From NCBI GenBank assembly GCA_037379345.1, contig CM074522.1, positions 24,304,001-24,368,000 of the forward strand: a stretch of DNA of 64,000 bases. Direction: 5' to 3'. The position numbers were made by a program, and so were the translations under genes. The notes beneath the pieces were generated by a model. It did not search any database and was not told the DNA's origin. It saw nothing but the letters and a program-made list of their open reading frames with translations. This DNA comes from Perna viridis. Lineage: Eukaryota. Of the stretch, positions 32,268 to 63,470 are shown in pieces (within the stretch, counting starts at the first letter, position 1; every line of letters begins with the position of its first letter).

Positions 32268-35200
32268 GTCTCAGATTGTGACGACTCTATTCTCTACACT
32301 GCTCCATCGGATCAAATTGATACAGGGAAGATAACGTAAACTTATAGAAGGGTCTGAAAAATTCCCAACGATGTTAGAACTGTCAAATTTGCGAAGCAAT
32401 TTTTTGTCGTTCCCTCCGCGGGACTCGAACTCATACCGCTGTGACATCTATGGCAACTCCGCCTGCACTTAAGTCCAGCCCCCTAGACCACTCGGCCAGC
32501 TAGGCTATATAAAAATATAGCTTTTGCTGGCCGGGTGATTCCTCCTCGTAGGATTAATCTAGGGGTGTAACTTAGTACACGATGTATGGTAGTACGGGAC
32601 AGTTCATTTAGGTGTTCTTATGTAGGATAGAGGATCAAATTAACGATGCATGTCACAACAAATCAATATTATACAACGTCTCAGAATGTGACGACTCTAT
32701 TCGCTACACTGCTCCGTCGGATCAAATTGATACAGGAAAGATATATAAACGTATAGAAAGGTCTGAAAAATTCCCAACGATGTTAGAACTGTCAAATGTT
32801 TTTATATATATATGATCAAACTGATACAGGGAAGATAACGTAAACTTATAGAAGCTATATTTTTATATAGCCTAGCTGGCCGAGTGGACTTAGTGCAGGC
32901 GGTGTTGCCATAGATGTCACAGCGGTACGAGTTCGAGTCCCGCGGAGGGAACGACCAAAAATTTGCATCGCAAATTTGACAATTCTAACATCGTTGGGAA
33001 TTTCTCAGACCCTTCCATATATATATCATTGTGGGTAAAATACTGTATTCATCTCAGTAATATCAGGAGTTGTGTCCATTACCCTCGGTCCGCCTCCTTA
33101 AGTAGCACTCTTTGTAAGAATCATTCAAATTTTGTAATATGTGATACACCCTGCTCTTAGGGGATAATTCACATTATTTATAATTTATATCTCCTTTGGA
33201 CAAACCACATGCTAATTTCTGTTCACTATATCACTTTAAACAAAATATGAAAAATAAAAATATGAATAGGCTTTCCAATAATAAATCAAATTTTGCATGA
33301 TTCTTTCTTTAAACAACCCACATGCTAACTTCTGATTACTATATCAATTAAAAAAAATGTCAAAAATGAAAATATGTAGGCTGTCCAATAATAAATCACA
33401 TTTTGCATGATTTTTAGCTAGATAACTCTTCTTAATTAATCATTTCTTTCAGTGTGCATTCTTCTAATGTAATCATTAAATAGAACGTTGTAAACAATAC
33501 CAATCCAGGGAACCAGGTTATAGCGGTAATTAAAAGAACGCAATCCAGGGACAAAGACCAGACACGGAAAACAGACATACACAACACAGAACATAATGTA
33601 ACTAAAATAATACATACAAAGCAACAAAAAGCAAATGAGCAACTCGGACTCCACTAAAAACTGGGAGCATGGACCAGGTGCACCGGTAGGGTAAGCGTCC
33701 TTTCCTTTCTAGAAACACCCGCCGAGTTGCTCATAAAAAGTCAAGTCTGGGGCACTCTTGTTTCCTTTTGTTAAGAAATTTAAACTGGTTGTAAGACACA
33801 CCCGATTACAATAGATGGGTAAATATTATTGGTCAGTATCAGCTTACTGTCCAGTAATTAAAATGGTAAAATAACTAAGGTACGAGATCACAATTAATTC
33901 CACTTGATTTTTATTGTGTTTTATCCTGATTCTATTTTTTGGTCCTTGCTGCGGAAATGTACGTAGGACCAGAATCGACATTACATTGAATTTTGTTTTA
34001 TTCTGCAATTTTGTACAGGAGTTGTGATTTGGTCATGTGAAAGAATGTGAAAATTTAGGATATTTGGCAGTGGTCACTCCTCATGTCTACGGGGTCTCTT
34101 ATCATTGTTGTTAAAATACAAAATGTTGGTATTTTTATTCTGCAGCACTTGCATGAATTTTGTTTTATGTATGATTTCTATATTAGTGAAGTGTATTGAG
34201 TTTAAAGCAGTGGATTTTATATTAGTTATAATAGGTCTGTTAAAATGCATTACGAAATCAATTGTGGTCCCTACCATACGTAGGTGGCAGAATAACCTAC
34301 TGAGTAGGCTTGCATAAAAATAAAATTGCCGTTTATTCTGTGATGAGACAAGATACACCAATAAAACTTTCAATGTAATTTGAGCATGTTAATACTAATT
34401 GTTGAAATTACGAAATTTCCTTTTAAGAGTCACCCAATCGTTCCACTACAAATTTACATTGCAGTTAGTCAAGTTCTGGGCTTTGGTTTGATTGATGCAC
34501 ATGCAATGGTAAACAGTGGAAAAACATGGTCCACTGTCCCTCCGCAGCAGATGTGTGAACAAACTAAACCGTAAGTACATTTGTTATGTTTTTTTTTTCA
34601 TTTTATTATTAATGTATATGTAAGCAGTTTATTTATAAACACGAAGGGGACATATAAAATCTGTACACTTATCCTAATCCTTTCACCTTTACTAATAGGG
34701 AATGCGCTGAAGATTTTATTTCAGCTAACGGTTCAGACAAATTCAAAAAATTACAAAATACACTGGTTTAAAAATTTTCATTGTCAATTGTGCATAGAAT
34801 TGAAGGTTGAAATATAGCAAAAATTGAAAAATTAACCACGTACGGGTAAAATAGTCGATTTCATGTGGCTTTTTTATGTAGAAAATACATTTAAAATGGT
34901 AATACGGGGTAAAACGAAAAACTAAACTTCTACAATGTGAACAAATCTGTTTTCTTGGTTCAGAAGGCCACACCGAAAGAATCGACGAGGCCATTTTATA
35001 GGCCGTAAAGCAGTGATGAATTTGTTCCAATGTTAGAAAGAAAACATGGAACTAATCTTCTGTGGGCTCCGGTATAACGTTTAAATAGCCATAGATAAAT
35101 CAAAACTAATCTTCTGTGGGCTCCGGTATAATGTTTACATAGCCATAGATAAATCAAAACTAATCTTCTTGTAGCTTCCGGTATAACGTTTACATAGCCA

Positions 35201-38200
35201 CAGATAAATCAAAAATCGACAATTTGAAATGACAAATCACCACAGTTGCAGAATATACCATCTGTAAGATTTACTTCTCCGACAGTTTTTAGTAATAAGC
35301 AAGATACGAACCTTCGGGATTCAAACAGGTCCTATTTATATACCAATTTGTTTTTTTTTGTGTTTTTTTTACTACTCTTGACGAATACATTGTCTGTCAT
35401 TAGTTATGTTAGTCATCCTCTGTGAATTAAGAAAAAAAACAGTGTAGTTCAGATGCAGTTTTACAAAAATAGAAAGAAAAATGCTGAGTACCATGACAGT
35501 TAAACTTGTCTAAACCAAAGCAAACTTGTGAAATATCCTTTGAATCAGACAGGTATTAGATTTTTTGGAATGGTCGTGGTCAACGCAAGAGGGACAAGAG
35601 GTCTTATTCCTAATTGATATTAAAACCGTGTTCTTTTGTTTTTGTTTTGTTTGAAATTTTTGTTTAAAACTATCCTTCATTTTGACATTCTTATACATTT
35701 TCTATTACAGAAATATACAAGAAAACTATTCTACTTTGACAATCGCAGCAATTGGTAATTGTTCGTCAATCGGATACCTTGAACATGTAACTGTAGATGT
35801 CACGTTCTACTATTCTCGTTTCCGAGGTAACACTTTAATTTACCTCATATCTCCGTTTGGAACAAGAAGTAATTTGCTTCATTATAGATATTACGATGCG
35901 GCTGATAACATCTCAGAAGGCACCCATACCTGGAAGTTTATGTCCGTACATTTTTGGTGGGAAAAACCTCATGGAACATGGATTTTGGAGGTCACTCCTG
36001 ATAATCCCTCGTTTTCAAATGGTAAAGTATCTTACTAATCAAGTTACTGTCTCAACGATTTCGCTCCAATAGAACTGTCAGGCATGACTCCCAAAGGAAT
36101 ATATCGTGTCACAAGACAGTCTTTGAAAGATATGATTACCAACGTTAACCCTGTAAACAACTCCGTATTTAAGTAATATTTATCTATAGTCACAATATTT
36201 GCCTCTTTCATTGCGCAGTAAATCTTTCCATTAAACTAACAATCATGATATCACGTAATGGTAAAAGACCCTAGGTATCCGATATGCATATGTACTGCCA
36301 CCACAACATGGATACAAATATGGCTACAAGTCTCCATGTGCAATGCAGGGGAATGACACCAAGTAAACATGCCCTCGTTAAGGTTATAAATTTAAAACAA
36401 ACTTGAATCAATCATGAACAAAAAAACTATTCTCTTAGTTTTGGAATGACATGAGAGACTTAAACATTTATATATTTGGTAACTAGATATCAACCAAACT
36501 GTGGTATCCAGTGTGTATACATTTACCTTAGACCGGCTAGTGCTCCAAAACGAGTGTCAATACAAAACATCAATAATATTTTAAAACTCTCGAATACTAG
36601 TATTTGAATAAAAGACACCACGATATCATAGTATATTTATTAAAATTCGACCGCTTGATACTTTCGTAAGCAGAATGGACAATCACACAGCAGTTTGAAA
36701 AGTTCAGAAAATTCAGACATGAAGTTACTTTCGTAAGCAGAATGGACAATCTCACAGCAGTTTGAAAAGTTCAGAAAATTCAGACATGAAGTCATTCGTG
36801 CATGCCAAAAACCAACAAAGTTAACTTTTTAAAACATCTGATTCAGAAACAGATACAGACCATATATTTTGTGGCATATAACCAGTTTTAGTTTCCCGTC
36901 CAGTTTTTGCACTTTCGAAAGTAAAATTATATATATTATGTATGAAATTGGTACGTTGAGTTTTTTTCTGATTTGGTATGTTTTGGTAGTTTTTAGTGTA
37001 CGGAATGTATGGTGTTTGAGAAATACAGATCAGAATACAGACATGATGTATCAATTCATTGTAATAAAACATACGAGACCGAAAGAAGCAAAATTTGTTT
37101 AGTGGGTTGCCCAACACCATTAATCAAATCTGTCGCGACAAAAAAGTAGAAATAAACTACTCTACAAGGTTAACAAATCATTAAAATTTTCTCAGTGATA
37201 AATAAATACTTCAGATTCTCTTTCATCTCAGACATAATGATGTGTTTGTTCAGTTGTATAGACAAGCAGAAATGTCAGTGCCTGGAATCGACAAAACTTT
37301 ACTTTTCGCAGTCGACACTATTGACTCAATGTGGTTATAGTTTGGAGATATGCATAAGAGCAGATTTATTTTTCACATTTTTTTCAAAGTCCTTTCGATT
37401 AAACGCGGATTTGAAACCAAATCATGTATTAACAACTCTGCGAATATTTCCAGAAAAGCATAGTACGCTTACCGTATTGATTTACATATACTTGTTGTCT
37501 ACTCCAAATATGGCTTGTTCATTTATTTGTAAGTTTCTTTGTGTATATTTTTGTATATTTGTGTAATGTATCGTCAATACCCTGTTTGCCGTTCAATTAA
37601 TAATAATGTTATTTTGTATAACGTGCTTTTAAATAATGGGTTACAATTAAACTAGCGAAATAACAAAATCAAGACTTGAATTACAGTTCATTATTTGTGG
37701 TATATTTCAATAAAAATCACGGACAGCAAAAAAAAAAAAAAACCTGTAATTTACGTCGATATGGTTCAGCAGCTTGAAGTTCAACTAATCTAAATCCGAT
37801 TCATAAGTTGCTTCATTGTTAATGAAATGTAAACTGTCCTCAAAATGTTATTACACAGCGTAGGTCGAACATTGAAAATATTCCTAAATTTACCCAAAAG
37901 ACAGATTGAAACTAGGGTTTAAGACAATTATCGCAAAAAGCGTTTTTATTGATTGTTACGCATGGTCTAACTTTATTTGAAAAAATCTGACAATCCACGC
38001 CACGTGACTATGTGTATTCATGGAACCCGTACTCGAACTCAAATTGTTGAGGAGTGACGACTGCAGTCTTGTAAACGAAAACCATTGATGCATAAAACGG
38101 TAAAAATATTATACTTAACTATTTCTCAACTATAAAGAAATAGTGATTCAAAATAGTAAATTCTGACGTTCTAAGCAGGTTAGTAATGCAATTGGAAGTT

Positions 38201-40192
38201 GCAAAATAAACACAGATCGGTTTTCGGGTTTCAACGCTTTTAGCAGTAAATTCCGGGAAAATACTTTTTCTGTAACAATAATTATACGCCGGATTGCTAC
38301 AGTTAGTTGATTGCAAATTCGCCAGAAATTACAACACCAGTAATGTTATTGATTTGAGATATGTACTCACATTACGAACGCTCTTAATGTACTCACCTTA
38401 ACAATCCATTAATTTTCTCAATCACGTCGTATGTTCGAAATCATTTTCTTCCTAAAGTATTGTTTTCGCATATTTAACTTCTATTTCATGACACATAAAG
38501 TGTTTTTGCTTTTCTTTAATTTTCAGTGCATATAAAAAGTTGGAAGATAACGTTGTATGGAACAGAAACAGATCCTCGACAAGGTATTTAAACAAAGATC
38601 TATTAATGGGAATGTACTGCGCGCTGCTGATTGTTACTATGGATATTTCCCAGTTTTTTTTGGGGGGGGCGGGACTGGGGGGGGGGGGGGGGCTCATGCC
38701 TATACAATCAAAATATCAATAATTACAAGGCCAATTCATTATCCTCGTTAGATCAGAACATATGATAGTACATATTTTGATGTAATGCAATTGTAACTAA
38801 TAACTCAAAATTTATATGTTGTATAATTCATGGCAATGCCAGGTTGCACTTTAAGAAAAAAATATCTATCTCGTATGATTGGTATAGTCATATCTGACTG
38901 TTCATTTGTACGAAACTTTCTTGGCTGTTTTTTTTTAATCTATGTGTTCCAAAAACTGTGTCTAATTTGGTACGATATTTTAGTCATTTAGTTTCATACT
39001 CGTCATAGTCTATGAATGTAAGTAGATTTGAATGTTACAAATTAACAATTTTTTGCATAATTGGCATTGAATCACCCATTCCAAAGTCTTTAATTGACGA
39101 ACTTTGTTTTACTTCATTTGTAAATACATACATTTTATCAACGTTCTAAGTAAAATTCAATCTGAACCCAGATTACTGTGGAAATACTTTAATTCGTTGG
39201 TACCAATTTTCATGGTTTATGGAAGAAACTTCTGCTGTAGAATATTGAATTTGTTGATTCGACAACTTAGTTTAATAAATGAATGAAACATTAACTTTCC
39301 GGTGGGGATCTAACTTTCATGGTTTATCAAACAAACCAAAACCATGAAAATTGGGACCCAACGAACAATGATACTTTCACAGCACTTCTTTCGATTTATG
39401 CAGTTGTACAGCTAACATAAATTTGAAATATCCAACATAACGGGCAAAATAATTAACTTTAGTAAATTTTGTACGACAGAGCATTACAAGGGAATTAAAT
39501 GATTGTTCTTTTATGTAAAAAATATGTATAGAGCAGAATACTATAAACTTGTCGATTTTCGTTATTTACGCAGAGGACAAACAAAAAAAAAAAAAAAAAC
39601 GTTTACAGTACTAAATCCTTGACGTAATATTAATCTGGTGTATTTGCTAAATTTTTTATATTAAACCAATTTCCGTATTAATGTTTACATATTGATTTTA
39701 GATCAAGTAAATGATGGTTCATCTCCACCATCAACGTCTTCTGATTCACCGATTACAGTTACTTATGTATCAGATACAAAAACAGCAGAAACAACAAAAA
39801 CAACTACTGATGAACACGAAACTACTACGGATACACCAGTAACAACCACCGATTCGCCAACAACAACTTCGGATACTATTATACAAGAAACAACTACAGA
39901 TACACTAGTACTGGAAACAACTACAGATACACTAGCACAGGAAACAACTACAGATACACTAGCACAGGAAACAACTACAGGTACTCTAGTACTAGAAACA
40001 ACCATAGTTGCTCGAGCAACAACCAATGATATTCCGACTACTTCAGATGTAACGAGGCCTGCCCAGTCTACAGCGATAACGGGTAGTGCATCATCGACAG
40101 AGCTAAATTTTGATTCTGGTAGCATCCGTACTATTAATTATAGCATATACATTATAATGATATTATTGATCTTATCAGTTTTAATAATTTGA
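1453..40192 (+). CDS. Furin/kexin-like proprotein convertase (S8B + P domain), 14 exons, ~788 aa, with mucin stalk and predicted GPI signal
   Basis: Exons 1453-1782, 5629-5745, 6403-6483, 7568-7696, 10934-10998, 13277-13365, 18367-18539, 25351-25554, 25911-26014, 28300-28409, 34465-34570, 35711-36021, 38527-38583, 39702-40192. All introns GT-AG with matching phase; total 2367 nt, no internal stop. Motifs: AIVDDG (Asp), RHGTQVAG (His), SNSWGP, AAGNGG (oxyanion Asn), GTSYSTP (Ser), LTWRDIQH, LEHV...SPFGT...WKFMSVHFWWE (P domain). Confidence 0.93.
3128..3610. mobile_element. MITE with ~65-bp TIRs and 9-bp TSD
   Basis: TIR CATCCTCCCAAGTCAGGG...GACATAACTCATTCAT and its inverse; TSD CTCTGAGAT at 3119-3127 and 3611-3619. 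Confidence 0.9.
5629..5745 (+). CDS. Convertase exon 2 (prodomain, RKSRTKR)
   Basis: ttttttcag| acceptor and |gtaagt donor; 39 codons; prodomain-like ...RTKRSIS... Confidence 0.85.
5978..6192 (+). mobile_element. ~210-bp MITE family (Kolobok-like termini); other copies 18086-18300 and 52753-52951 (inverted)
   Basis: TIR (TTAA)GGAGGTAGACC / GGTCTACCTCC(TTAA); shared body taacttggactgatttcattctg...gaaagcttgatagg. Confidence 0.7.
6403..6483 (+). CDS. Convertase exon 3 (IISVEQSVAHIRKTR/TLDPEWKNLWHL)
   Basis: Matches furin WLEQQVAKRRTKR...DPKFPQQWYL; ctag| acceptor and |gtaag donor. Confidence 0.9.
7568..7696 (+). CDS. Convertase exon 4 (catalytic Asp)
   Basis: [31 protein letters not shown]. 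Confidence 0.95.
8134..8175. repeat. (TA)n microsatellite
   Basis: Direct reading. Confidence 0.95.
9122..10068. mobile_element. Foldback-type element, almost entirely an imperfect inverted repeat (~950 bp)
   Basis: Arms pair from the ends (taaaagtcgcgaaa / tttcgcgactttta) to near the centre (catgttgacttttt / aaaaagtcaacatg). Confidence 0.85.
10934..10998 (+). CDS. Convertase exon 5
   Basis: DTANDKDVYGGDNDPYPPTGD; phase 0 to 2. Confidence 0.9.
11690..12070 (+). repeat. Degenerate satellite-like tandem repeat, 3 units of ~145-175 bp
   Basis: gaatttNgactgaa...cagtNacNNNNatgata at ~11697, ~11843 and ~12019. Confidence 0.7.
12091..12520 (+). mobile_element. tRNA-Leu-containing ~410-bp element (family B), copy 1
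   Basis: tRNA-like segment 12361-12454 with A box and B box (GTTCGAGTC); terminal direct repeat ggaatttttcaNacc at 12091 and 12505. Confidence 0.8.
13277..13365 (+). CDS. Convertase exon 6 (catalytic His)
   Basis: RHGTQVAGLAVAVKDNNICTVGTAFKATLIG. Confidence 0.93.
13895..14637 (-). mobile_element. Non-autonomous Helentron (HINE)-like element with ~155-175-bp tandem core
   Basis: Ends AACAAGAGG... and ...GGCCTTCGGCCAGGTGAGCTAA; (GAC/GACG)n microsatellite; three aagggcaataactc-type units. Related copy at 60073-60700. Confidence 0.75.
14900..18050 (-). mobile_element. Decayed CR1-clade LINE (ORF1 remnant, APE endonuclease, RT)
   Basis: KCIYTNADSFINKFDELK (APE); KSTGSDKIHP...LFKKGD...NYRPVCLTSVICKIMEK (RT); GHCMKVVKRRCRLDVQKYF (CR1 C-terminus); many stops and frameshifts. 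Confidence 0.85.
16778..16907. mobile_element. 130-bp palindromic MITE (PIF/Harbinger-like ends) nested in the CR1
   Basis: GGCGTCGATTTCACAAAAAGTCGTAAGTGTAAA ... TTTACACTTACGACCTTTTGTGTAATCGACGCC. Confidence 0.8.
18367..18539 (+). CDS. Convertase exon 7 (SWGP, substrate-binding loops)
   Basis: IRLIGIYAVDDDEEASALSHFSEGVDIYSNSWGPQDKTGFGKPGTITNMALKEGVTT. Confidence 0.94.
18838..19060 (+). mobile_element. Family B tRNA-containing element, 5'-truncated copy
   Basis: gctgaccgagtggtctagggcgctggac...gagttcgagtcccgcggagggaacgac. Confidence 0.8.
19285..19710 (-). mobile_element. Family A PLE 3' end with RT C-terminus
   Basis: Translates GYVATRLKSSLQKFYGRHRELVD..., followed by the conserved 3' region. 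Confidence 0.8.
21807..22286 (+). mobile_element. ~480-bp non-autonomous retroposon (family C) with (CAAT)n tail and 11-bp TSD
   Basis: TSD TCCTAAGGCAA at 21796-21806 and 22287-22297; tail GGCGTTAAACCCCAACAATTAATCAATCAATC. Confidence 0.85.
22556..22588 (+). ncRNA. Degenerate minimal type-I hammerhead ribozyme in the Penelope 3' region
   Basis: CCC-CTGACGA-AGGCC-ATAA-GGCT-AAAA-TTT-GGG; the expected CGAAA has become TAAAA. Confidence 0.6.
23617..24063 (+). mobile_element. Family C retroposon, divergent second copy
   Basis: Shares blocks AAGCTTGTCGTAAGAGGCGACT, CTGCCCACAG, CGCAAACCATAGTGGT, GCACGTT, GGAGTAGGAACC, GGAGGCTAAA and the tail; imperfect TSD AAACAATGCTT/AAAAAATGCTT. Confidence 0.8.
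25351..25554 (+). CDS. Convertase exon 8 (oxyanion Asn)
   Basis: [35 protein letters not shown]...WYAEVC. Confidence 0.95.
25911..26014 (+). CDS. Convertase exon 9 (catalytic Ser)
   Basis: TTTTTSAGCTINNIQGTSYSTPLVSGIIALTLEAN. Confidence 0.95.
26360..26800 (+). mobile_element. Interspersed repeat fragment with ~85-bp internal duplication; second copy 49335-49500
   Basis: gtggccaga...gggttgtgatcacgccaaagta...aaccccgccgcattttttgcg shared by both loci. Confidence 0.65.
26948..27322 (+). mobile_element. MITE-like family; other copies 33108-33420 and 42471-42841 (inverted)
   Basis: Termini tttgtaagaatNatgcaaa / ttgcatgattctta and shared internal sequence. Confidence 0.6.
28300..28409 (+). CDS. 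Convertase exon 10
   Basis: NDLTWRDIQHLIV...WTMNGAGKN. Confidence 0.94.
28750..29860 (-). mobile_element. BEL/Pao LTR retrotransposon remnant
   Basis: ELQVFSDTS...IAAAVYLR...LGKAKVAPKP...ELYTAVLAVE (Pao RNase H region); YRSQWKRVQSLAQTFW and PVGAII...DNRARKAEV...PVTEI (integrase C-terminus). LTR boundary uncertain. Confidence 0.75.
30490..31050 (-). mobile_element. Family A PLE 3' portion (Naiad-like, RT C-terminus)
   Basis: SQLIHNGRYCHTYADFLCRARLLTMRLLEQDYVATRLKSSLHKFYG...LVDRY; the ORF ends with no downstream endonuclease. Confidence 0.8.
32265..33017. mobile_element. Family B compound insertion: 1.3 tandem units (-) plus inverted partial copy (+), in (TA)n
   Basis: aacgtctcag recurs at 32265 and 32675 (period 410); strand switch near 32852; TA tracts on both flanks. 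Confidence 0.85.
33505..33750 (-). mobile_element. Family A PLE 3' end; further copies at ~4640-4760, 27935-28100, 42147-42350, 43376-43505, 53565-53720
   Basis: Close match to the shared core. Confidence 0.8.
34465..34570 (+). CDS. Convertase exon 11
   Basis: VSQVLGFGLIDAHAMVNSGKTWSTVPPQQMCEQTKP. Confidence 0.94.
35050..35214 (+). repeat. 54-bp tandem repeat x3
   Basis: aactaatcttctgtgggctccggtataacgttta...agataaatcaa at 35050, 35104 and 35158. Confidence 0.9.
35711..36021 (+). CDS. Convertase exon 12 (P domain)
   Basis: YLEHVTVDVTFYYSRFRGNTLIYLISPFGTRSNLL...WKFMSVHFWWEKPHGTWILEV. Confidence 0.94.
36659..36792 (+). repeat. 67-bp near-perfect tandem duplication
   Basis: tactttcgtaagcagaatggacaat...cagacatgaagt at 36659 and 36726. 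Confidence 0.9.
38527..38583 (+). CDS. Convertase exon 13 (end of P domain)
   Basis: VHIKSWKITLYGTETDPRQ carries the W.L.LYGT motif; phase 1/1. Confidence 0.9.
39174..39382. mobile_element. Tc1/mariner-type MITE
   Basis: Inverted ends tactgtg...ttcgttggtaccaattttcatggttt / aaaccatgaaaattgggacccaacgaa...cacagca. Confidence 0.6.
39702..40192 (+). CDS. Convertase exon 14: Thr-rich stalk + C-terminal hydrophobic (GPI-type) signal
   Basis: ttttag| acceptor, phase 1 matching exon 13; ETTTDTLxx repeats; ends DSGSIRTINYSIYIIMILLILSVLII-stop. Confidence 0.8.
39887..40003 (+). repeat. Coding 27-nt minisatellite (ETTTDTLVL/ETTTDTLAQ, ~4.3 units)
   Basis: gaaacaactacagatacactag... recurs at 27-nt spacing. 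Confidence 0.9.
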
Positions 40193-40394: not shown

Positions 40395-43300
40395 ATATAG
40401 GTAGTTGTCAAAAAGGAAAATATGTATAACAAATGGCAATATCAGGGCAAAAACCGGAATTTGGAAAACAACTGAAGTGTTCCTGACCTGGTGCAGGCAT
40501 TTCAATATGAAAGCTGGATTAAAACAGGTTTAATAGCAAACTAAATCTCCCGCTACAATACTGCTGGAAGGAGTGTGATCAAACTTGGCATGACCTTCAC
40601 TTACAATATCCTTATTTATCTGTGTGTATTAATTTACGATCTGGCGATAAACCATGGCCATTCGTCAACAAATGGTTCTAAGTAAGCTAAGTTCTAAGAT
40701 ACGCAAGAAAACTAAGGTTCTATCATTGATTAAATGATTTCTGTGACATAGGAACAGTATGGTCAACAGTCCAATTTTGAGTTATTGCTTTAATTTATAA
40801 GACTTAAAAAGGCTAATTATGACCAGTTGAGCAATTCAGGCTTTCGACAGCCTCTAGTTTGTTTACTTGACCCAAACCTCCAACAGGCTTACAGTCCCTG
40901 AAGCGATCCCGGCAACGCTTTGACGGATCGATGACCGTTGACTGGTGACCGATCTGATCGCAGTTTTGTTATGTAAAATGACGAATGAATCGTAAAAATT
41001 AAACACATGTACAAAAAAGTATATTAAAAAGTAAATTGATGTTCAAATTTATTGCATAATGTAAATATGTGTAAAATTGACAGAGAAAACACTGGAAACT
41101 GTAAAATATATTGACCGCTCTGTGGTCACGTGATGCGATCACCGGTTTGATAGGTAGGTTTGACGGATCGATGACTGATCGGAATTTTTGTTGTACGGAT
41201 CGGTTCAGGTACTGTATCAAGGCTGGCGAGCGATACTGACTCGGTAGAGATTTTGTTGATATATAGGTAAATGAAGGCGATAAAAATGAAATGATTCTGG
41301 TGCAAAAAAAGTTCTTTCATATTTAAACATTAGATCAAAACACAACCATTCGAAGTCAACAAAATATTGAATCAAATTGAAAAAAGAACATTAACCCAAT
41401 GACATGACTAAGGTTCTTTATAATGCCATGAGGTTCATTTATGTCTAAACTAAAACAAACATCTCACGACAGAGAAATAGATTTAAAGAAACTATACAGT
41501 GAAACAATAATGCATGGGTGCACAATTAAAGTGGGAAATAAATGTACATCGCGAATAACTAAGAAAATCCATAGAATGTCTTTAACACGTCGGACTCCAA
41601 ACAATAACCAACATTTCTAATAGATTTGAAACAACTGACACATCTCAAGTCTCCTACCTCAAGGCATAGAGTGAATATGGTAATAATAACACAGGCTCAT
41701 AAAACAACTTAGACTCCTAAAACAGCCCATAGAATAAATTTGAAACATCATATAGGAATAGGTTTGACTCCTGACATAATTCATACAAAAAGTCTGATTG
41801 TAACAGTAGTTCCCGGAATGTTTACTAAAACGGTAATTTCTTTTTTAAGACAAGGTTGAAATCACTTAAAAAATTTATGGACAGTAATGTTATGAGTTTC
41901 AATACCGATCAAGAAGAGTTTCTTAATTCACATCCGGTTCAGTCTGGAGTATGAATATCCAAAAGCACCAGTAAAAACAAACAACAGACACAGCTAATCC
42001 GGTTTAAATCGAAACCGTATTTGACTTTATAATTATTGTTATTCTCAGACGATTGCTATGCGTAGAATACAGTCATCAAACTGACATAGTATTCATTGAA
42101 ATACATGTGGTTTAGATAAGGTTTATGGAATGTTTAAGGTATGGTAGAGTAATAAATGGAACCAAGGTTATAGCGGTAATCAAAAGAATGTAAACAAGGG
42201 GCAAATACCAGACATGGAAAACAGACATACACAACAAAGAACATAAAGTAACTGAAATCATACATACAAAGTAACAAAAGCAAATGAGAAACTCGGACTC
42301 CTGTAAAAACTGTGAGCATGGACCAGGTGCACCGGTAGAGTAAGCGTCATTTGGTAAAAACAAATTACGATGTACACATCAAAATCAAACAATTGTTATT
42401 TTGTGGCTAGAGAGAAAAAGCAGACAGTTATTTAAAGATTAAATCTCTGAAAGCATTAAGTACCACTGCGGTTAAATATCATGCAAATGTGATTCATGTC
42501 TGAAAAGCCTACATGTTTTTCATTTTAATAATTTGTTTGAATTGTAATAGTAACACAGAAATTAATATTGCGTTTTTCATATAACCTGTGTTCTTAGGGA
42601 ATAAAAATTATATAGAATGCAATAAAGATGTCAAAATCAAGGGAGATAACTCTGACACTCAAAAAACGATATAATCGATTGGATGTCTGATGTTGATTAT
42701 CTCCTGAGAACAGAGAGATTGGAATAAATAATTACACATTAAATAATAAATACCCATAAAACAAGTTAATTACAAAAATAACAATATGTAGCCTTTTTAA
42801 AGGTCTATCACATTTTCAGTCTTTGCATGATTCTTACAAACTTGAAGACAGTTACTTAAATCATCTTTATTTATAAAATAAAAAACCGTCTATAAAATAA
42901 TTCAAGTTTCCTTTCAGTATGAAGGCTTTTGTTATTGCAGTTACAACCATTTTTAGCGTATTCCAATTAAGACGATTACAAAATACAATATCTTAATTGA
43001 TTAAAAAGGACAAAAACTGTTCATTAAGATTACAACATAGGTCCGGAGGTTTATGTATTTTGACAATTTTTTAAAAAAAATAATCAAATTAGAAAAAAGA
43101 AAGAAAAAAAAAACACACATCATTTTGACATTTATTTATTTTTATTAAAAAAATCATTTTGATTTTTCATTGTAATGCAGCAACTCTTCCCTGTATTAAA
43201 CGCTCAATTCTCCCTTCCACATTTTTCCGTTCCCCTGGCCCAGCGTCACATTGTCCATGCCATATTCATACTAATCATTATTTACGCGTAATAAATATTG

Positions 43301-47100: not shown

Positions 47101-50100
47101 CAATGATAGAGGAGATTCAAGGTAAAACATAAATCAAAGAAATAAAAATGACCGCTCTTGCCGAGTGTCAATTTCATATGCAATATATAAATAGTAATTA
47201 AACAATAACGAACAACCAAAGGACAAGCTTAGACTTCTAATGTGGGCTATATAATTTTTGAACTACAGTCAAACCTCGGTAGCTCGAACTCCAAGGGACC
47301 ATTGAAATGTGTTCGAGTTATCGGGAGTTCGAGAAATTGAAGTTCGTATATTTTCCGGATTTTCGGTGCCGGTCCGAGTTCGACTTTATCGTTAGAAATT
47401 GCCTACTTCTTACGAAGTTGTGTTAGTTCGTGGATCTTTTCCGTTCGCGTTTGGAAGATTATGATGATTTGTGAACATTAAAAATGCTGTGTTCGCTTTT
47501 AAAAACGTTCAGAGTTCGAGTTCCTTGGTCAATAATTTGTTTTCATCCGATTTTCTTTCATGCATTTATCATACCAACATTCTCGAACTTCAATCAGTGT
47601 TATGTGAAAGATCAAAACTATCTAATTAGTGATGACTTAAATTTTACCTGTAATTAACTAAAATGACACTGATTAATGGTAGGGTTTCAGTTTTTCACCC
47701 CTTTTATTACCCAAGCTGACAAAATTGCTGACGAGTTCGAGTTAGTGAGGGTTATTCTCTAAGATATATTACCGAACGGACCGACTAGTCAGTTCGAGTG
47801 TTCGAAAAATCCAAGGTTCTTTATACTGATTATATAGAAGAAAATTTTGGTACTTTGAATTGCGTTCGAGAAATCCCGGGTGTTCGAGCGAGTGAAGTTC
47901 GACTGTATAAAATAAAATGAATTTTGTTAAAATTTTAAACAGACACGAATCATTCATAGCTGATCTTTATAAAAACTGATACTTAAAGTGCGTTTATACA
48001 ATTTTTGAGTTCGAAAGTTTAATCATTGAAGTTGATTAAACCTAGTATACCCAATCGTGGTTTCTACTGTAATGAGATTAATCTATGATAAGGTGAAGGC
48101 AAATGGTGCAACAAACGTCTTACTACTTTACCAATCATGTCAAATATGCTTACATCAAAGTGTTCCTTTTTTGGTTATATATAATTGCATATTAAATTGG
48201 ATATCTCAAATATGTCATACGTTTAATAATATCGTTTGGTTAGATCCTGCAATCTCAATTTCAATCTCTTATCTTTCTAGATTGAAGTCATCACTACAGA
48301 AGTTTTATGGTCGTCGTCATGAACTCGTGGATCGTTATGGTGTATCCATCTGCACCATGAAAACTGATTTATTCAACGGGCCATAGTTTTCATTTTCTCG
48401 TTTGTCTACCCCGGACTTGACTTCTAATGAGCAACTCGGCGAGTGTTTCTAGAAAAGCAGAGGATGCTTACCCTGCCGGTGCACCTGGTCCATGCTCCAA
48501 TTTTTAGTGGAGTCCGAGTTGCTCATTTGCTTTTGTTACTTTGTATGTATGATGTTAGTTACTTTATGTTCTTTGTTGTCTATGTCTGGTCTTTGTCCCT
48601 AGATTACATTCTTTTGATAACCGCTATAACCTTGGTTCCCTTGATTACTCTTTAAACACAGCTAGTTTATTTGAGGTAAAAGTCAGGCAGTGGATGAGAC
48701 ATGGTGCAAGGAAACCATCATTTTGAAAGTATAATTAGATAATTTGCATTAAATCACATTCAAGGAAATAGGAGATCATTTTCCATATAATTTTTGTAAA
48801 TTGAGTTATAATTTCATTGAAATTCACTGAAAATGAACATCTCAAGAGCAGATAACGCTGTCGAAACCCGCATTTTTCTTGCATCCTTTTTAATGTTTTC
48901 TGAGCAAATCCAGTGATACAGATATAAAAAAAATGCTCTTTTCAAATAGAGAGAGCAACCTTGATTGAAATTATATTGTCAGTGGGGTTAGGATATGCAA
49001 TATTACCCATTTTCCCCGATTCCTACAAAAACTAACATTTAAGGCATTTAAATTAATAATCCTTCCTATTAATTGCATTCATTGAAAAAGATATTTGTAC
49101 ACAGTCTGGATTTTATTGCCGATAAGTAGTAAAATTTGTCTATACCGAACCCGGAATAATCTGAATACCTGTGTAAAGGTAACACTTTATAAAGTATCCT
49201 TAACATAACATTTTGTAGGTTTAAACTGGTCTGGAGATGTCACGTCAGTTAACTGCTAGTAGTTCTTAATTTGTACATTTGTGTAATTCATACCCAGTTT
49301 CTTTATTGCCGTTGTAGCAAGGGACTTAACCCATAAAACTGATTTTTAAGTGTGTTTAATTGTGTAATATTTTTCCCACAGTGGCCAGAGTTTAAGCGGG
49401 GAGGGTTGTGATCACGCCAAAGTATCTAACTCCATCGCCTTTTTTGCGCCTGTCCCAAATCAGAAATGTCTGGCTTCTTTTTGTCTTGTTTCGTTTTTAC
49501 CTTGTGTAAAATGGGTAAACGAGATGCTACCGATTGAAATATTTCCGGATTTATCACATTTCTCTTCCTAACTGGTTTTGATTTTAAACGTTACAAAGTT
49601 ATACTTCGGCAAAAAAATTAAAAATGAAGAAAGCAGCAGAGTCTTGTCAAAAGATGAATTCCTTTTTCCGTAAACGAATAGCTATTCTAGATAATACATG
49701 TAGTGACAATGTCCATTCAGATGATCAGGCTACGGAGCCAGTAGTGGCATCCACTGAAATTTCAGACAAATCAATGCCAAGTTACAGTGATAGTTGTTCA
49801 TCCAGCCAGTCCTCTATCAAAAGCTCGAAAAGAAATGGCCTTTCTTATCATGATATTGGTGATATATCGAGCAAAGATATGACCCGGGACAATAATATCA
49901 AAATGCTTATGCCGATGATTAGCTAGGAAAGTGTAGACAATTTCTCTTTCCCTACTAGGTATGTACCATTTTCTATCATTGATCTAAAATAAATGACCGG
50001 CCATTATTTAAACTGTCACAACCCGTAGGGAAAAGACAAATTCGAGGCAAGACCAAATAAAATAGAGTCATCAAGGATATGCCGGAGGTTATCAAAATTA

Positions 50101-53100: not shown

Positions 53101-56100
53101 AAACCTGGTATGAAAAAACCACCATTTTGTTAGTGTAATTTGACTACTTGCACAATTAGTATTAAGGAAAAAACAAGATTTTCCATATCATCGTGGTGCT
53201 TTGTGATATAATTTCATTTAATTGCACTGTAAATTAAAATTTAAAGGACAGATAACTCTGTCAAAAACCTCTTTTTTTCTAACATTTTATTAAAAAAAAT
53301 ATGGAAGTAAATCCAATGATGTAGAGATCAAATAATGGCCTTTTCAAATAGAAAAAGCATCCTTGAGTGAAAATATATTGTCAGATCGGTGTAGTTTTGA
53401 CATGCATGTTTCTAATTTTGCCAACTATGCCTGATTTTTACAAATACTTACACTTAATTGGCACAATCAGCTAATCATTTTGAGAAATATCCTAAAATCA
53501 ACATCGACATATTATTAATTGTGACATGTAGCGGTATTGTAGTTATTTTAATTTTGTGACTCCTTCAGGACGTTTACCCTCGCCCCATGCTCCCAGTTTA
53601 TAGTGCAGTCTGAGTTGCTCATTTACTTTTGTTGTGTACGTCTGCTTTATATGTCTGGCCTTTGAATCTGTATAACATTCTTTTGATTTTCGCTAGAATC
53701 ATGGTCACTTGCTTACTATTTGTCCTATAATTGTTTATCCATAGGTAGTCAATTGGCCGATATAGGTAATAGATGATGGTATGGACCTATGACTATCTTA
53801 TATTTGCTCCTACATTATTCATATATTTATTGTATTTTGATTAACAAAGTTCATATTCTGGAAAACACAATTTAATTTGAAATATTAATCATGGGAAGGA
53901 GAGATGATTCTATTGTTAAGTCATTTTTGAAATGTATGATATGGGTGTATGTTTGAAGTATGTAAATATGTTTACGTATCTTTTAAAAAGTTATTTATTA
54001 TTTTAGATCAAAAATTATGTTTTTGGCATTATTCCCATAGTTGAAAAGATATCTTTTTATTTGTTATGATTTCTGTCGCAAACAAATCATTTTTTTCTAT
54101 TTCCTAAAAAATCCAAATTATTCAGAAATATGGTACTGTTTTCGGAATAACTTTGCTTAAAAAAGGTAATAATGATATTTCATTTTTCATACTCATAGAT
54201 TAAATATTGAAATAATATGTATTTCAGACACGGTGGGTCCGTCCGTCGTTTTAAGTTTAGCAAGCACTTTGACTCGAAGAAGAGTCGTGTTTGGACCAGA
54301 GATATCAACTGTCCATTACACGCCTTAGATTTAAGCACATGTTCCGGATGGGGAGATTTCATCGGGTGTAATTCATGGCTTAATGGCCCTGCTATTATTG
54401 TATGCAGAGCAAAACCGTTGAAAGGTAAGTTGTTATTGAAACTACGCAGTTGGATATGTAATGGTGGTTTTTATAATAGGGTTTTAGGATCTCACGCCAA
54501 AATGAAAAAAAATATCTTAGGTATCTTATTACTGACGGTAAGGGTGTAGTTTTTGTTGCTCATATAATTGCATAAAATTCAGTTAAATCAACAAGTTTGA
54601 ATAAAAACCATAGGCATAGTAACTGTAAACCCCGCCACCAGTTTCTACTGCTTCTTTATTGTAAAAATAATTGATATAGTGAGAACTACGGATGCCTATG
54701 CGCAATTGAATGCAACATCTTTTATATTGTAAATGCATTTATTTTCAGTATAATAATTATGACGTTTTTTGCTGTGATAAATTTGCGCGACAAATATTAA
54801 TAAAAAAAATGATTAACACCATGAATCTCCAATCAGTTCATAAAGCCATCAAAATTGATACCCTTTAAAATTTTACTTGGAATAAATTCGTGACATTATA
54901 TTCGTTTACCAGAAATGTAGCAATGACTTATATGACGTCGATCGGATTTAGTAAGACATGTCTAAAACACATATCTATTTGACTGTAGAATTTATACATT
55001 AAACAAAAAGAATGAAAATTGTCGAGTTAGGAGGTTTTTTGGTGTTAATTCTGAGTTTGGTTTAGACAGGTTTCAATGTGATTTCTTTCAGGTCCCAGAC
55101 TTCTTGTATAAACAAAACTGTTTTTCTATCTCATTTTCTTTCAGTTTATAATGATATGGCAGTAACTCTACCAGGAAACCTGTCAGAGGGAATTGTTCAA
55201 GTTACTAAGAATGGATTTATGGGGACTGTTTGTGCAGATTCAATCTATGGGAAAGAAGTTGATGCAATTTGCAAAATGATTGGATTCGGGTAAATATGAT
55301 CACAGTTTTTCAGATCTATGGAAATAAATATTCGTTTACATCTGAATGTCTGCATTACTTCTTGATCTATACACCGTAAAGTGTTTTCATTGTCTTTTAC
55401 TCGCAGTTACTGCGTTCAATCTATTTTTCATCAATTTTAATTAGCGATTGCTCCGTTAATAAATTACATTTTATTTATTTAAAAAAAATATATATTCGCG
55501 AATATTTAATTTTGTCGCCACATTTTTTACGGTTTACCGTATACATGTACGCAGCTTGATTTTTCTGTCATGAAGCATTTTTGTTTCTGTTCAAGCTGTT
55601 CATAAGTGATAAAATTGAAAACAAACCATCTTTGGGATATTTTATCATGATAGAAAAAGAACAGAACTGGTGAAACGTATAAAATGCACCAGCGTATGGC
55701 TTAAATTCAAAATAGTATATACTTTCAGAGATTACAAAACGTTCTTCAATAAGTATAAACAAACCTTAGAGAACGCTCTGGAAGGCCCCCAACAACAATC
55801 AACAATATGATAAATGAAACATTTCTGACCTTTGACAGTCAATTAAATTTGCCTGGTGGGGTTACACTACTTTCATAAGGCTATAACCACCCCCGTTTAT
55901 TGTTAGGTGAAAATGAACCGAAACGACTACTAAACACACCTTGAAATTTATTCAATGATTCATCCAATTCTGCCCTTGAAATAATGTAGGTCAACATAAA
56001 CCATATAAACAAATGATATATCCATTTAACGAACGATCGCAGTTACTGAAATCTAGCTCAGAATATAATAAAGAATAAAAATGCCGTCAAAACTACCAGT

Positions 56101-59100
56101 CTAAGAAATAATCACTCACTACAACTGCAGTGGGCTGATTTTTGAGAAATACCGTTGCAGTAATAAAAAAATATCGTATTTGTTACGTAAGGATGCAATA
56201 AGGGGTCAAATATCCCTATCATTGAAAACAAGGTTCAAAGAATTACAATAATTTGAAAATCATATCCTTTACAAATCAATATATTCAGGGCGGGCGATAA
56301 ACCCATCCGAATTTGTTTGATAGAATGTGTTTTATAGACTATAATTCCCCCAAAAACTGGATTTGCAATATGATTTTAAATTAAGAACTTGCAAGTGCTG
56401 TTATATTTTGGTATCAAGGTAATGTAACGTTAAAAAAGTTGGTTTATGTTTTTAGAAGTTGAGATATCGATGCCTCAGTATCAGTTATCATTAAGGAATT
56501 CATTGCGATCATTTTGAAGATTTTTCTTTATACAAATAACATCTGCAGTTGAGGACGGTATACTACATTACCACACGAAGGAAGAACCTTGCTCTAAAGA
56601 CAAAGTCGAGGAAGATTTTCTTTTTTGAATGTGTTTATCTGGTATCCATCTCCAAGTGCAGGTAGTATTTGTTATATAATACTGAATATCTTTAAAATCA
56701 TGTTTGGATATGCGTAAATTACTAATGTAATTTTTAATTACGTCTAAACAAGTTATCGATTGATGTTTTGTGTTTGGTGGAATTATAAAACGTGGATATC
56801 GTAACGGAAATAGCAAGGCAAATTTCCGGTTGAAACGGGTGGAATCCTTGACGGAAGGATGGTATTATTTAAGAAATTATGGTTTTATTTGGGGTGGATT
56901 CTTTTATGATCAATGAAAAGTGAAGATCTTTTTGTATAATGTTAAAAATATATGATACTCTTGTTTCAACGTTGAAATGTATTTCAACGACCATGTTCAG
57001 TTCACTATTGAAGTGTCCAGATAAAGTGAGGAACATGTAAATAATTTAAAAAGCAGAAACAAACACTTACAAGTACATTTCCGGGTTATACTCAATCTTG
57101 GATGACTCTAACCTCGAATAACTCGAACATTTTGCCAGTTCCCTTCGACTTTGACCTAACAAAGTATGATTGTAGTTCATTTATGATGAAATTGGGTACA
57201 GGCATATCAATTTATAAATGTATTTGACCACACTGTTTCTTAACTGCAAACACAGGTTGACCTTGTTCATATGGTTGGATCTATCCACCGCTAGTAAATG
57301 TAACTACATTGTTTTATTTATGTTTTAAATATTTCAAAAGTTTGTTACTGTACCACTTCGTTAAAGATTTGATCAAATCGTTACTCTCATTAGATTAAAA
57401 AAAGAGAATGTGCTGTAATAAAATACTCTTGGTTATTTATTGAGCATGGACTTTTTACAGGTTTGGTGGGTATAAGTACAAGCCACCAGCATCTGTATGG
57501 TTTCGGTACATTTCGATGAAACAAATTCTCCAGAATTTAACTTGCCCAGGGGATGCTTATAGACTTAATGATTGTACCCATGCAGGTTGGGGAAAAGAAT
57601 GCGAAGGGTGCAAATGTAGAAACCAACATCCACTCGCGTTAAAATGTTGGCTTCCTAATGAAAAAGGTAAATATATATATATATATAGAAAGGTCTGAAA
57701 AATTCCCAACGATGTTAGAACTGTCAAATTTGCGATGCAAATTTTTGGTCGTTCCCTCCGCGGGACTCGAACTCGTACTGCTGTGACATCTATGGCAACA
57801 CCGCCTGCACAAAGTCCAGCGCCCCTAGACCACTCGGCCAGCTAGGCTATATAAAAATATAGCGTTCGCTGGCCGGGTCATTCCTCCTCGTAGGATTAAT
57901 CTAGGGCTGTAACTTAGTACACTGTGTATGGTGGTACGGGACAGTTCATTTAGATGTTAATATGTAGGATAGAGGATCAAATTAATGATGCATTTCACAA
58001 CAAATCAATATTATACAACGTCTCAGAATGTGACGACTCTATTTGCTACACTGCTCCATCGGATCAAATTGATACAGGGAAGATTTGTAAACGTATAGAA
58101 AGGTCTGAAAAAGACTCAACGATGTTAGAACTGTAAAATTTCTGAAGATTCTGAATATTGTTTTATGTAAACACATGTTTTGTGATGATTTTTAGCATTG
58201 TGTAAAAATATCAACTAAAAATATTAACAAACACTATAATGATAAGAAACTATATGAAAAGAATGACCTTAATGTTTTTTTTTTAATTTATTCCGTGTGA
58301 ATATAAGCACGGAGTTGTTTTATCCAACATCCTTCCCGCTTCACTTTCCTTTGATCGCTCCAGATTGTGTTTTGTTCCACGATTAGAATTTTCATTTTGT
58401 TGAAATCATCGAGGCAATGTTTTGGCAATCTGAAGTGTTGACTCACAGGGAGTAAAGACTTTTTTGTTAGGTCGCTCAAGTGTCCGTTCAAGCGTTGCGA
58501 AAAGGCTGTTTAGATTCACCAACATAATGAAAGCCACAGATTGGACAGTGGCGCAAATATATCACAATAGCACTGTTGCAGTGCACGTTACAAAATATTT
58601 TGTAGTGTTTCCCCGTGACCGTTCTGGTGAATAATGACGAGTGGTGCATTTGTTTGCATCATTTACACCATTTGTTACCACAACAGCGACTCTCGCCTGG
58701 AGTCAAGGTTGGGTTTAGATATTTCAGCCCTTACAAGCAGACTACGCAAACTGTCTGGCTGTCTGAAAGCTGTATGATAGGTGGTTCTGGAAAGACTTTT
58801 TTTCGACAGAGGCTCAGTGCTCACGAGTGATATTGTGGCTGTTTTTAAGGCAAGGGTGATATGTTTGTGTTGTACTTTTTACACTTTTTCTTTGCCTTGT
58901 ACTGTAACAGGGTACTCCTTGTGATATTGTTATTCTTTGGAACTCTTCTTTAATGGTCTTGTATCGATATCCCCTTTTTCCTTTATCATTGGAACAAATT
59001 CACCTTAGCCTAAGGCTTGACTAAATGATATACTTTTAGTCAGGTGAGAGGGATAACAGCTATTAGGCATATATTTCATATCTCGCTTATATCAGATACA

Positions 59101-62299: not shown

Positions 62300-63470
62300 T
62301 TAATCAAGGGAACCAATATGGTAGTGGAAATCAAATGAATGTAATCCTGGGACAGTAATTAGACATGGAAAACAGACAAACACAACAAAGAACATAAAGA
62401 GTAATCAAGGGAACCATGGTTATAGCGGTAATCAAAAGAGTGTAATCAAGGAACAAATACCAAACATGGGAAACAGACATACACAACAAAGAACATAAAG
62501 TAACTATAATCATACATACAAAGTAACAAAAGCAAATGAGTAACTCGGATTCCACTAAAAACTGGGAGCATGGACCAGGTGCACCGGTAGGGTAAGCGTC
62601 CTCTACTTTTCTAGAAACACCTGCCCAGGCTCATAAACAGTCAAGTCCGGGGTAGACAAACGAGAAAATGAAAACTATAAAATAAGTAAATAATACATAC
62701 AAAGTAACAAAAATAAAAAATCAACTCGGAATCCACTATTAACTGGGAGCATGGACCAAGTGCACCAGTAGAGTAAGCGTGCTCTAGAAACACCCACCGA
62801 GTTGCTCATAAAAAGTCGTTTGGGGTAGCCGAAAGAGGATAAGAAAAGTATGACACTTTGAACAAATCCGTTTTCAAGGGGCAGATGGATACACCGTAAC
62901 AATCCACGAGTTCAATCTTAGACCAACATTACCCTGTTCCAGGAGAGCCAAATTGTAAGAAGTCTAGCGCGATACAAAAGTCTGCGTTGTCACGGCAAGC
63001 TCTGGCATAACGTATGAGTTGTGATATGAAAACTCATTACGCAGGTGCTGAAGGGATGTTGCAATAATTGAAAGGAAAATTGATAATACTAAATGAAAAA
63101 TCATCGCATTTGTCATATAGTTTGGTATATAATTTTCCCTTACCATCGATTTTTTAGTGTACGTTGAGATATGATGCTGACTTCACATTGTCTGTAGTAT
63201 CCTTTATCTCAAATTCTTTGGGGTAGATGCGATGTATCAAAACTAAGAATGGTAACAATAATACGTCATCGATATGGAAGAAACTGATATTAAAGGATCC
63301 GGCGAAACGATGTTCTTTCTTTCGGATCAGATCGGCACTAAATTCACTCATAAGAGTGAAGGAGTAATCAAGGGAACCAAGGTTATAGCGGTAATCAAAG
63401 GAATGTAATCCAGGGACAAAGACCAAAAAAACAGATATACACAACAAAGAGCATCAAGTAACTAAAATCT
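62300..63470 (-). mobile_element. Family A Naiad-like PLE: 5'-truncated RT flanked by repeated 3' ends (pseudo-LTR arrangement)
   Basis: SFNISFFHIDDVLL...IYPKEFEIKDTTDNVKSASYL, KLYDKCDDF; 3'-end copies at 63360-63470, 62680-62900, 62400-62670 and 62300-62400. Confidence 0.85.

Follow-up and report, generated by a model that had tools for sequence, protein, structure and literature searches.

The 3´ untranslated region (UTR) of a Naiad-type Penelope-like element (PLE) of Perna viridis contains, within the terminal repeat of the element, a compact pseudoknotted RNA motif whose fold is undescribed and which we predict, with a probability of roughly 0.6, to be a dimer-gated self-cleaving ribozyme. 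The motif was analyzed in a 64-kb stretch of contig CM074522.1 (positions 24,304,001 to 24,368,000, hereafter the window, with coordinates counted from its first nucleotide), in which the flagged copy occupies positions 48426-48527 of the plus strand. An earlier note, made from the letters of the window, had proposed this block as a new ribozyme or as an element that loads the reverse transcriptase (RT). An uncatalogued, conserved, pseudoknotted RNA and ribozyme candidate is what stood, and RT loading became the weaker option because in close relatives an unrelated fold takes the place of the motif, while a third structure, located at the RT start site, is common to them. The main feature had been overlooked: UUUCUAGAAA and ACCGGU are loopless palindromes.

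The motif is 102 nt long and begins 40 nt behind the RT stop codon (TAG, 48384-48386), in the place that the earlier note had assigned to it. A closing stem of 14 bp, P0, pairs 48426-48439 with 48514-48527. An unpaired C and the 5´ strand of stem P1 (48440-48445; GGGUG in the family, GAGUG here) are followed by palindrome 1 (10 nt, loopless, 48446-48455), a predicted inter-copy duplex. The conserved joining strand CAG (48458-48460; C and A invariant, G in 13/14 families) leads to the 5´ strand of the pseudoknot helix (48461-48465), which pairs with 48488-48492 and forms four of its five pairs in the window family. A conserved single strand, GCUYAC, with a pyrimidine linker comes next (48466-48474) and is a candidate core. 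Palindrome 2 (6 nt, 48475-48480; ACCGGU in the family, GCCGGU here), the predicted second inter-copy duplex, precedes the 3´ strand of P1, which the cross-family alignment places at CACCU with a nearly invariant G (48482-48487). Hairpin P4, which has a variable loop (48494-48513) and is formed in 14/14 families, is stacked between the covarying 3´ strand of the pseudoknot (48488-48492) and P0.

Of 335 confirmed metagenome loci, the best 80 were retrieved with an RT alignment, and 23 of these carry the motif. Four near-duplicates and six decayed copies of one family were left out, and the remaining 13 loci, one per family, were compared with the window family. Between these 14 families, identity is 0.75 in the motif core and 0.51 and 0.54 in the flanks, with shuffled values of 0.48-0.52. 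In the resulting alignment, A2, 97.8% of 270 cells are paired and 11/18 pairs show two-sided changes, a score that 0/500 shuffles reached; slid controls pair in 39-48%. The shuffles ignore relatedness and the p-values are optimistic; the palindromes nevertheless differ between tree neighbours. The pseudoknot is paired in 68/70 cells with two-sided changes in all five pairs, compared with 66/70 when the 3-nt offset given to L192 is withdrawn and 45 when families are swapped. The inner 6 bp of P0 are paired in 80/84 cells versus 58.6 after shuffling, a count biased upward by choosing the 3´ strand for each sequence. Approximately 20 core positions (CGGGUG, CAG, GCUYAC and CACCYG) are nearly fixed across four phyla, and the motif exists in more than 20 natural variants with matched compensatory changes. 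As read from these alignments, P0, P4, the 5-bp pseudoknot and both palindromes keep their pairing while the sequence changes.

Palindrome 1 forms 5/5 pairs in 14/14 families, and all five pairs covary, with 13 different sequences and six different central tetramers. When 12 published consensi are included, it is fully self-complementary through its centre in 26/26 cases. The central pair is A-U, U-A or G-C without a loop, and 28/28 central cells are paired, compared with 16.4 when families are swapped. Palindrome 2, before CACC, reads UCCGGA in 12 families and ACCGGU in the window family and is decayed in L261. Across families and consensi, the palindromes measure 10 nt and 6-8 nt, respectively. 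Because a loopless stem cannot form within one strand, we infer that the selected pairing joins two copies, and both palindromes are likely to pair two copies of the motif. In palindrome 1 and the pseudoknot, G.U was observed seven times and C.A never, which favours selection on sense-strand RNA over DNA. Co-folded dimers lay 6-17 kcal/mol below two monomers for 7/7 motifs; this gain was not used as evidence, since it mostly reflects swapping of P0 and the calculation holds no pseudoknots.

The 12 consensi form an out-of-sample set that played no part in deriving the model. They belong to the 54 Naiad consensi in the supplement of PMC8557442, where the motif is unannotated; the supplement was read in part and by eye after the model had been built, and line breaks may hide more. 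The set comprises hydrozoan (1_Chem, 2_Chem), bivalve (CGi, Sglo, Olur, Tgra, Pmar), hemichordate (1_Skow, 2_Skow, 1_Pfla, 2_Pfla) and fish (Cmel) elements, with Pmar and Cmel identified by file order. Palindrome 1 is perfect in 12/12, the pseudoknot is paired in 58/60 cells, and palindrome 2 is intact in 11/12, where it reads UGGCCA, GGUACC, CCUAGG, CCAUGG, UUCGAA, GUCGAC or UCCGGA; in Pmar it has one extra central base.

The flagged copy is a decayed, 5´-truncated insertion and probably inactive. It spans 48279-48652 on the plus strand (3´ end ±3), approximately 375 bp of a 3,409-bp unit, and comprises the final 35 RT codons with the stop codon (48279-48386; the C-terminus is the same as in intact relatives), the motif, and the remaining 3´ UTR with a 38-nt tail (48528-48652) up to the common insertion 3´ end, the inferred RT start site. 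It deviates from the family majority at 48442, 48465, 48475 and inside the P4 loop, and reads GAGUG, GGAU and GCCGGU where the majority has GGGUG, GGAC and ACCGGU. The letters that had been quoted for it are those of the majority. The change at 48442 removes the pair with 48485 and disrupts P1, so that the inner stem GGGUG/CACCU proposed earlier holds for most of the family and is broken here. The flagged stretch folds with z = -3.9, which 0/200 shuffles equalled; this is mainly due to the 14-bp closing stem, which was correctly identified before, and both strands fold equally well against 200 shuffles. A covariance model finds 13 matches in the window, in line with the approximately 13 loci given in the earlier note. 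The second copy lies at 19418-19523(-), and the others at 106-205(-), 823-903(-), 4631-4735(+), 27921-28027(+), 30606-30711(-), 33631-33735(-), 37427-37537(+), 42280-42378(-), 53546-53626(+), 62532-62637(-) and 62713-62810(-). A blastn search with the flagged motif returned 12 further window matches of at least 39 nt, and an exact 20-mer from the motif was counted 16,073 times in the 723-Mb genome.

Among the remaining claims of the earlier note, the complementarity of GGAC and GUCC and the pseudoknot were borne out by the covariation across families, and the hairpin CUCC/GGAG was confirmed. The variants in the window that were said to retain pairing represent ordinary C-to-T decay in one family, not compensation. 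The hairpins AAGC/GCUU and ACC/GGU have no two-sided change, and their pairing of 78% is at the level of shuffled sequences. The block had been called the best-conserved part of the family, which holds between families and fails within the family: over 117 hits, from the window plus 600 kb sampled from the genome, identity to one reference is 0.886 for the motif and 0.873, 0.835 and 0.867 for the flanks, as expected for dead copies. Decayed copies of a single family, the evidence then offered, do not suffice for the claim built on them.

The host element is a Naiad PLE by domain order, motifs, tandems and tail, as the earlier note had suspected; the RT tree contained no named reference clades. 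The 20 full-length loci that were retrieved encode an endonuclease followed by an RT, and most finish in the UTR of the flagged copy. Full-length copies with this UTR align to P0084 from the endonuclease through the end of the RT, and P0084 matches GIY-YIG and RVT_1, both below the curated cut-offs. The motifs CX2-5CxxC, CCHH, CxC and DKA, which are Naiad features (PMC8557442, section 6), are present in the translations of L290, L291 and L293-L295. The insertions have one common 3´ end, and the next tandem unit begins at a fixed junction; the repeat length of one array of the family is 3,409 bp, and the 38-nt tail repeat is seen in 504 RNA reads as a joint stepping back by 38 nt. Upstream repeats (partial tandems) and inverted copies were found among the full-length loci, which together with a tail of 30-40 bp and a size of 3.4-4.4 kb agree with a Naiad. 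In partial tandems, one motif lies 230 nt before the unit start and another behind the open reading frame (ORF); given the fixed junction, a tandem transcript therefore holds the motif twice, before and behind the ORF.

Several loci illustrate how the element and its motif are distributed. L289 (G000 C3, ~46.03-46.06 Mb) is a head-to-tail array of complete 3,409-bp units, nine of which are listed, and in L015-L023 (G000 C7, ~37.40-37.46 Mb) a 6.6-6.8-kb segment with a Naiad piece is repeated nine times. At least two older families of the same genome (L033-L062) carry the motif with different palindrome and pseudoknot sequences, and for a further family of that genome, the majority drawn from 15 copies also fits the motif model. 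Pattern scans of viral and prokaryotic collections gave chance matches only, except L072, a contig of a bacterial metagenome-assembled genome that contains the motif and is probably host contamination. An RT scan of viral contigs found nothing.

The place behind the RT is not always occupied by this motif. By pattern, the 80 RT-related loci divide into 23 with the flagged motif, 15 with a twister-like motif, 5 with hammerhead core words, 22 that end too soon and 15 without a label, and the covariance model detects decayed flagged-motif matches in 8/14 unlabelled loci searched. Among the 80, the two motifs were never labelled together behind one RT; in L200, a separate flagged-motif copy lies 1.2 kb away on the opposite strand. 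The twister-like motif runs GA with the T1 strand, two palindromes, UAA, P2, T2, P3 and P4 with its L4 loop, which is the order of a permuted twister with two palindromes in place of P1. In 11/12 parsed loci, pairing amounts to 22/22 for P2, 22/22 for T2, 43/44 for P4 and 27/33 for T1 (p = 0.09); the twister features were taken from section 5 of PMC6154101. RTs that are 62-63% identical carry this unrelated fold at the place of the motif. In a quick RT tree with an arbitrary root, the twister-type loci L199 and L200 group with carriers of the flagged motif (support 96), and L205/L206, which have the flagged motif, branch outside that group. This alternation and the dimeric hammerheads of other PLEs may be counted, by analogy, for a ribozyme.

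The twister-like family is also present in the Perna viridis genome, where several copies have RT remnants upstream; in the window, decayed PLE copies at 26480-26570 and 49395-49470 (both +) have the twister-like fold with two palindromes at their 3´ end. Twister-like loops are visible by eye, unannotated, at the 3´ ends of 1_Movir and Mley in the supplement of PMC8557442, in Mley with two palindromes. The RT relatives with hammerhead core words (L209, L210, L212, L213 and L255) have these in the order GAAAC then CUGAUGA, and four of them have approximately 320 extra codons after the RT. A selenocysteine insertion sequence (SECIS) above the Rfam cut-off lies behind a related RT at L227:1987-2048, with similar text in L237 and L238, the latter of which carries the twister-like motif as well.

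Just behind the tandem junction lies a third structure, a conserved long hairpin that is shared by the flagged family, L190, L193, L198 and L259, is looser in L199, and also stands at the start of published consensi of both motif types. It shows compensatory changes and borders the inferred RT start site on the 3´ side (the first 75 nt behind the junction in L290; L190:149-210; L193:1929-1990; L198:1614-1673), while the flagged motif lies approximately 125 nt 5´ of that site. In the one PLE studied in vitro, the anole Penelope (PMC11167929), the required RNA is at and 3´ of the internal RT start site; insertion proceeds without the hammerhead, which needs protein to cleave and is not visible in RNA-seq. 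Because that PLE needs RNA at and 3´ of its start site, the unit-start hairpin would fit the role of RT loading better than the flagged motif does.

In the mechanism that we propose, both palindromes would pair one motif of a tandem transcript with the other, or one RNA with a second, and the two duplexes would bridge the inner ends of P1 of the two copies. Antiparallel geometry would put the loop of CAG, pseudoknot strand and GCUYAC of one copy at P1 of its partner, since the 19-nt inter-palindrome segment of copy A would then have both ends at P1 of copy B. The simplest partner for the pseudoknot strand of copy A would be the matching strand of copy B, and each core would thus draw on both copies. 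By cleavage, read-through or tandem transcripts would be cut back to unit-length RNA, which would be released or perhaps circularized, a role that has been proposed for the hammerheads of other PLEs. A stronger version, to which we give slightly less than even odds, holds that the motif represents a new structural class of ribozyme, an obligate strand-swapped dimer with active sites built from two copies, and that the Naiad slot is exchangeable among this fold, twister and hammerhead, all gated by palindromes. Because each active site would need both copies, RNA would then be cut only in tandem transcripts that include both unit ends.

Several observations weigh against a self-cleaving ribozyme. 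P1 has no two-sided covariation; it is nearly invariant, with a one-sided G.U/G-C change at its first pair, and the pseudoknot topology therefore leans on an invariant helix. The core fits no known catalytic site. The twister-like fold of the sister Naiads is itself a predicted ribozyme, with the T1 pairing at the p-value given above, and Rfam recognizes no more than its P4 part, with 10.7 bits versus a cut-off of 37.6. Structure-guided searches have also returned conserved RNAs without cleavage (PMC6765202).

Traces of cleavage in reads and genomic copies were also absent. No pile of read starts or ends was found in the 19% of RNA run X24 that was read; 52-64% of the placed reads continue into unrelated sequence, and this blank is weak because most reads come from dead copies inside host transcripts. 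The genome has no dominant 5´ truncation site, with 55/16,073 at one candidate and 106/12,679 at another. The upstream repeats of full-length copies begin at scattered places, and in 3/20 copies (L296, L297 and L302) the upstream repeat is too short for the motif. Since the PLE hammerhead described in PMC11167929 leaves no trace in RNA-seq, such blanks would be uninformative here. Two candidate signals were discarded: a truncation hot spot 22-24 nt into the core (6/117 starts) fell to 0.84% genome-wide versus 0.34% for another site, and 119 starts at the first G of P1 have no denominator and are confounded by CpG decay. No indexed sequencing run is listed as holding the motif RNA.

The most serious alternative, although an unlikely one, is a non-catalytic element in which the palindromes join two RNAs, or the two ends of one, and the invariant core binds the RT-endonuclease dimer. 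It could explain the tandem and inverted insertions, and it builds on dimerization, the best-supported property of the motif. The fixed sequence of P1, as often seen at protein sites, the absence of a cut in RNA run X24, and the PLE protein, a predicted dimer that needs a specific RNA region (PMC11167929, as available), are all consistent with it. An element that binds this protein is difficult to reconcile with RTs of 62-63% identity using the unrelated twister-like fold in the same place, with the separate hairpin directly 3´ of the insertion end that both motif types have in common, and with the required RNA of the tested PLE, at and 3´ of the RT start, whereas the motif lies approximately 125 nt 5´ of it.

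A rearranged known ribozyme is improbable; its likeliest form would be pistol-like, with the palindromes providing stems in trans. The pseudoknot strand is preceded by A-G and followed by G-C, and a G-C pair across it is possible; this arrangement resembles A32 G33 ... G40 C41 of pistol (PMC6154101, PMC6795133), and A34, G35, G41 and C42 of alignment A2 are invariant or nearly so; natural non-circular permutations are known for hammerheads (PMC10085705). However, the place of G42 is a U in 13/14 families, the pseudoknot has 5 bp rather than 6 bp with a P1 loop, its partner strand lies outside any hairpin loop, and the junction after palindrome 2, in place of the 2-nt junction between P3 and P2, has 0-1 nt. 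No Rfam Pistol match was found even at E<=10 on 151 nt, and the pistol mapping was rejected.

Compact pseudoknots can block exonucleases, and tandems place the motif before the next ORF, which would suit post-transcriptional control of that ORF by a nuclease block or a translation or export signal; such a function is very improbable, as it leaves the two loopless palindromes and the exchange with the twister-like fold unexplained. A DNA-level feature, such as a promoter whose protein sites are palindromic, or fortuitous pairing within a decaying repeat can draw on the promoters of PLE terminal repeats (PMC6765202), the equal folding of both strands and the lack of extra within-family conservation, but scarcely deserves credence, since the palindromes vary freely, the wobbles favour the sense strand and the long-range pseudoknot covaries; covariation has already largely refuted it.

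The predicted dimer-gated ribozyme, if true, would be a rare find: a new class within a repeat that is among the most abundant in invertebrate genomes. No more than about ten classes of small self-cleaving ribozymes are known (PMC10085705), and the recent ones come mostly from bacterial data. Naiads have been taken to thrive without a ribozyme, suggesting that hammerheads merely parasitize PLEs (PMC8557442, section 15). If three unrelated folds do fill one slot under a common palindrome gate, this would speak for dimer-dependent RNA processing as part of the mechanism.

The window also contains another repeat family of approximately 457 bp (12091-12548, 32343-32797, 57684-58139 and 18837-19071; copies 82-93% identical), long inverted repeats at 9143-10057 and 16778-16907 (arms 74% and 87% identical), and a threonine-rich open frame of 175 codons with short repeats and a hydrophobic end at 39665-40192 (+), a candidate mucin-like exon.

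Compared with known systems, the host element shares domain order, motifs, partial tandems and tail with the Naiad clade (Craig et al., 2021; PMC8557442). For Naiads, that study reports no canonical hammerhead; the text searched also describes no further ribozyme and no palindrome, and the words twister, palindrom and hairpin are absent from its main text. No description of the motif was found in the full-text literature, covered mostly by title or abstract start, with subscription journals, Repbase Reports and Dfam notes mostly outside the coverage. Rfam 15 gives no match to the motif at E<=1 in the window, which answers the Rfam comparison that the earlier note had called for, and no ribozyme or cis-element family at related motif loci. 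Twister-sister, hatchet, hairpin, Varkud satellite (VS), glmS and hovlinc likewise have no Rfam 15 match, and Rfam also misses the twister-like sister at its cut-off. No SECIS match occurs at the flagged motif, though Rfam finds one in the related locus L227; the conserved cysteines, at which a SECIS would call for an in-frame UGA, are intact in L290, L291 and L295. The feature comparisons below agree with the earlier judgement by eye that no hammerhead, hepatitis delta virus (HDV)-like, twister or SECIS consensus is present.

HDV-like ribozymes, such as CPEB3 (10.1101/2022.09.22.508989), likewise have a P1 that starts with G.U, is followed by G and is interleaved with a second helix; in the motif, the first P1 pair is GU in 13, GC in 1 and another in 1 of 15 rows, and the 3´ pseudoknot strand comes one G after P1. 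Unlike in HDV-like ribozymes, no P3 with a 7-8-nt L3 is present, nor a P4 and J4/2 cytosine between P1 and the 3´ strand of the second helix (P2), and a palindrome that varies freely occupies the region where P3 would be; the HDV-like fold was rejected in both direct and circularly permuted order. CPEB3 can dimerize through a 4-nt palindrome, but its dimer is inactive. The type-P5 twister (RF02684) has no core in common with the motif, which lacks the U-A-A cleavage loop and has one pseudoknot rather than two; no twister loop was found in the full unit of the family. The twister-like motif of related Naiads occupies the same place behind the RT, has the same two-palindrome design and alternates with the flagged motif, which differs from it in lacking UAA, GA with the T1 strand, and the L4 loop, and in having one pseudoknot. 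Pistol (PMC6154101, PMC6795133) shares the order A-G, pseudoknot strand, G-C and a spacing of 4-5 nt from the preceding helix to the pseudoknot strand; the motif departs from it by the U for G42, the 5-bp pseudoknot, the missing 2-nt cleavage junction and the connectivity.

The closest parallel in design is found in the dimeric minimal hammerheads of PLEs (Cervera and de la Pena, 2014; PMC4209133). Stem III of the metazoan PLE hammerheads is palindromic; these ribozymes cleave only as dimers, and weakly, and obtain their partner from tandem insertions (PMC4209133, PMC6765202). The motif shares with them the location in the terminal repeat of a PLE, a loopless palindrome in place of a stem, and tandem insertions as the source of the partner. 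Unlike them, it has two palindromes instead of one, a pseudoknot and another core without CUGANGA/GAAA; no such pair of boxes was found on either strand of the full unit, Rfam gave no hammerhead match, and a hammerhead mapping was ruled out by the missing boxes. The fold is undescribed, and its proposed role has a precedent in these dimeric hammerheads.

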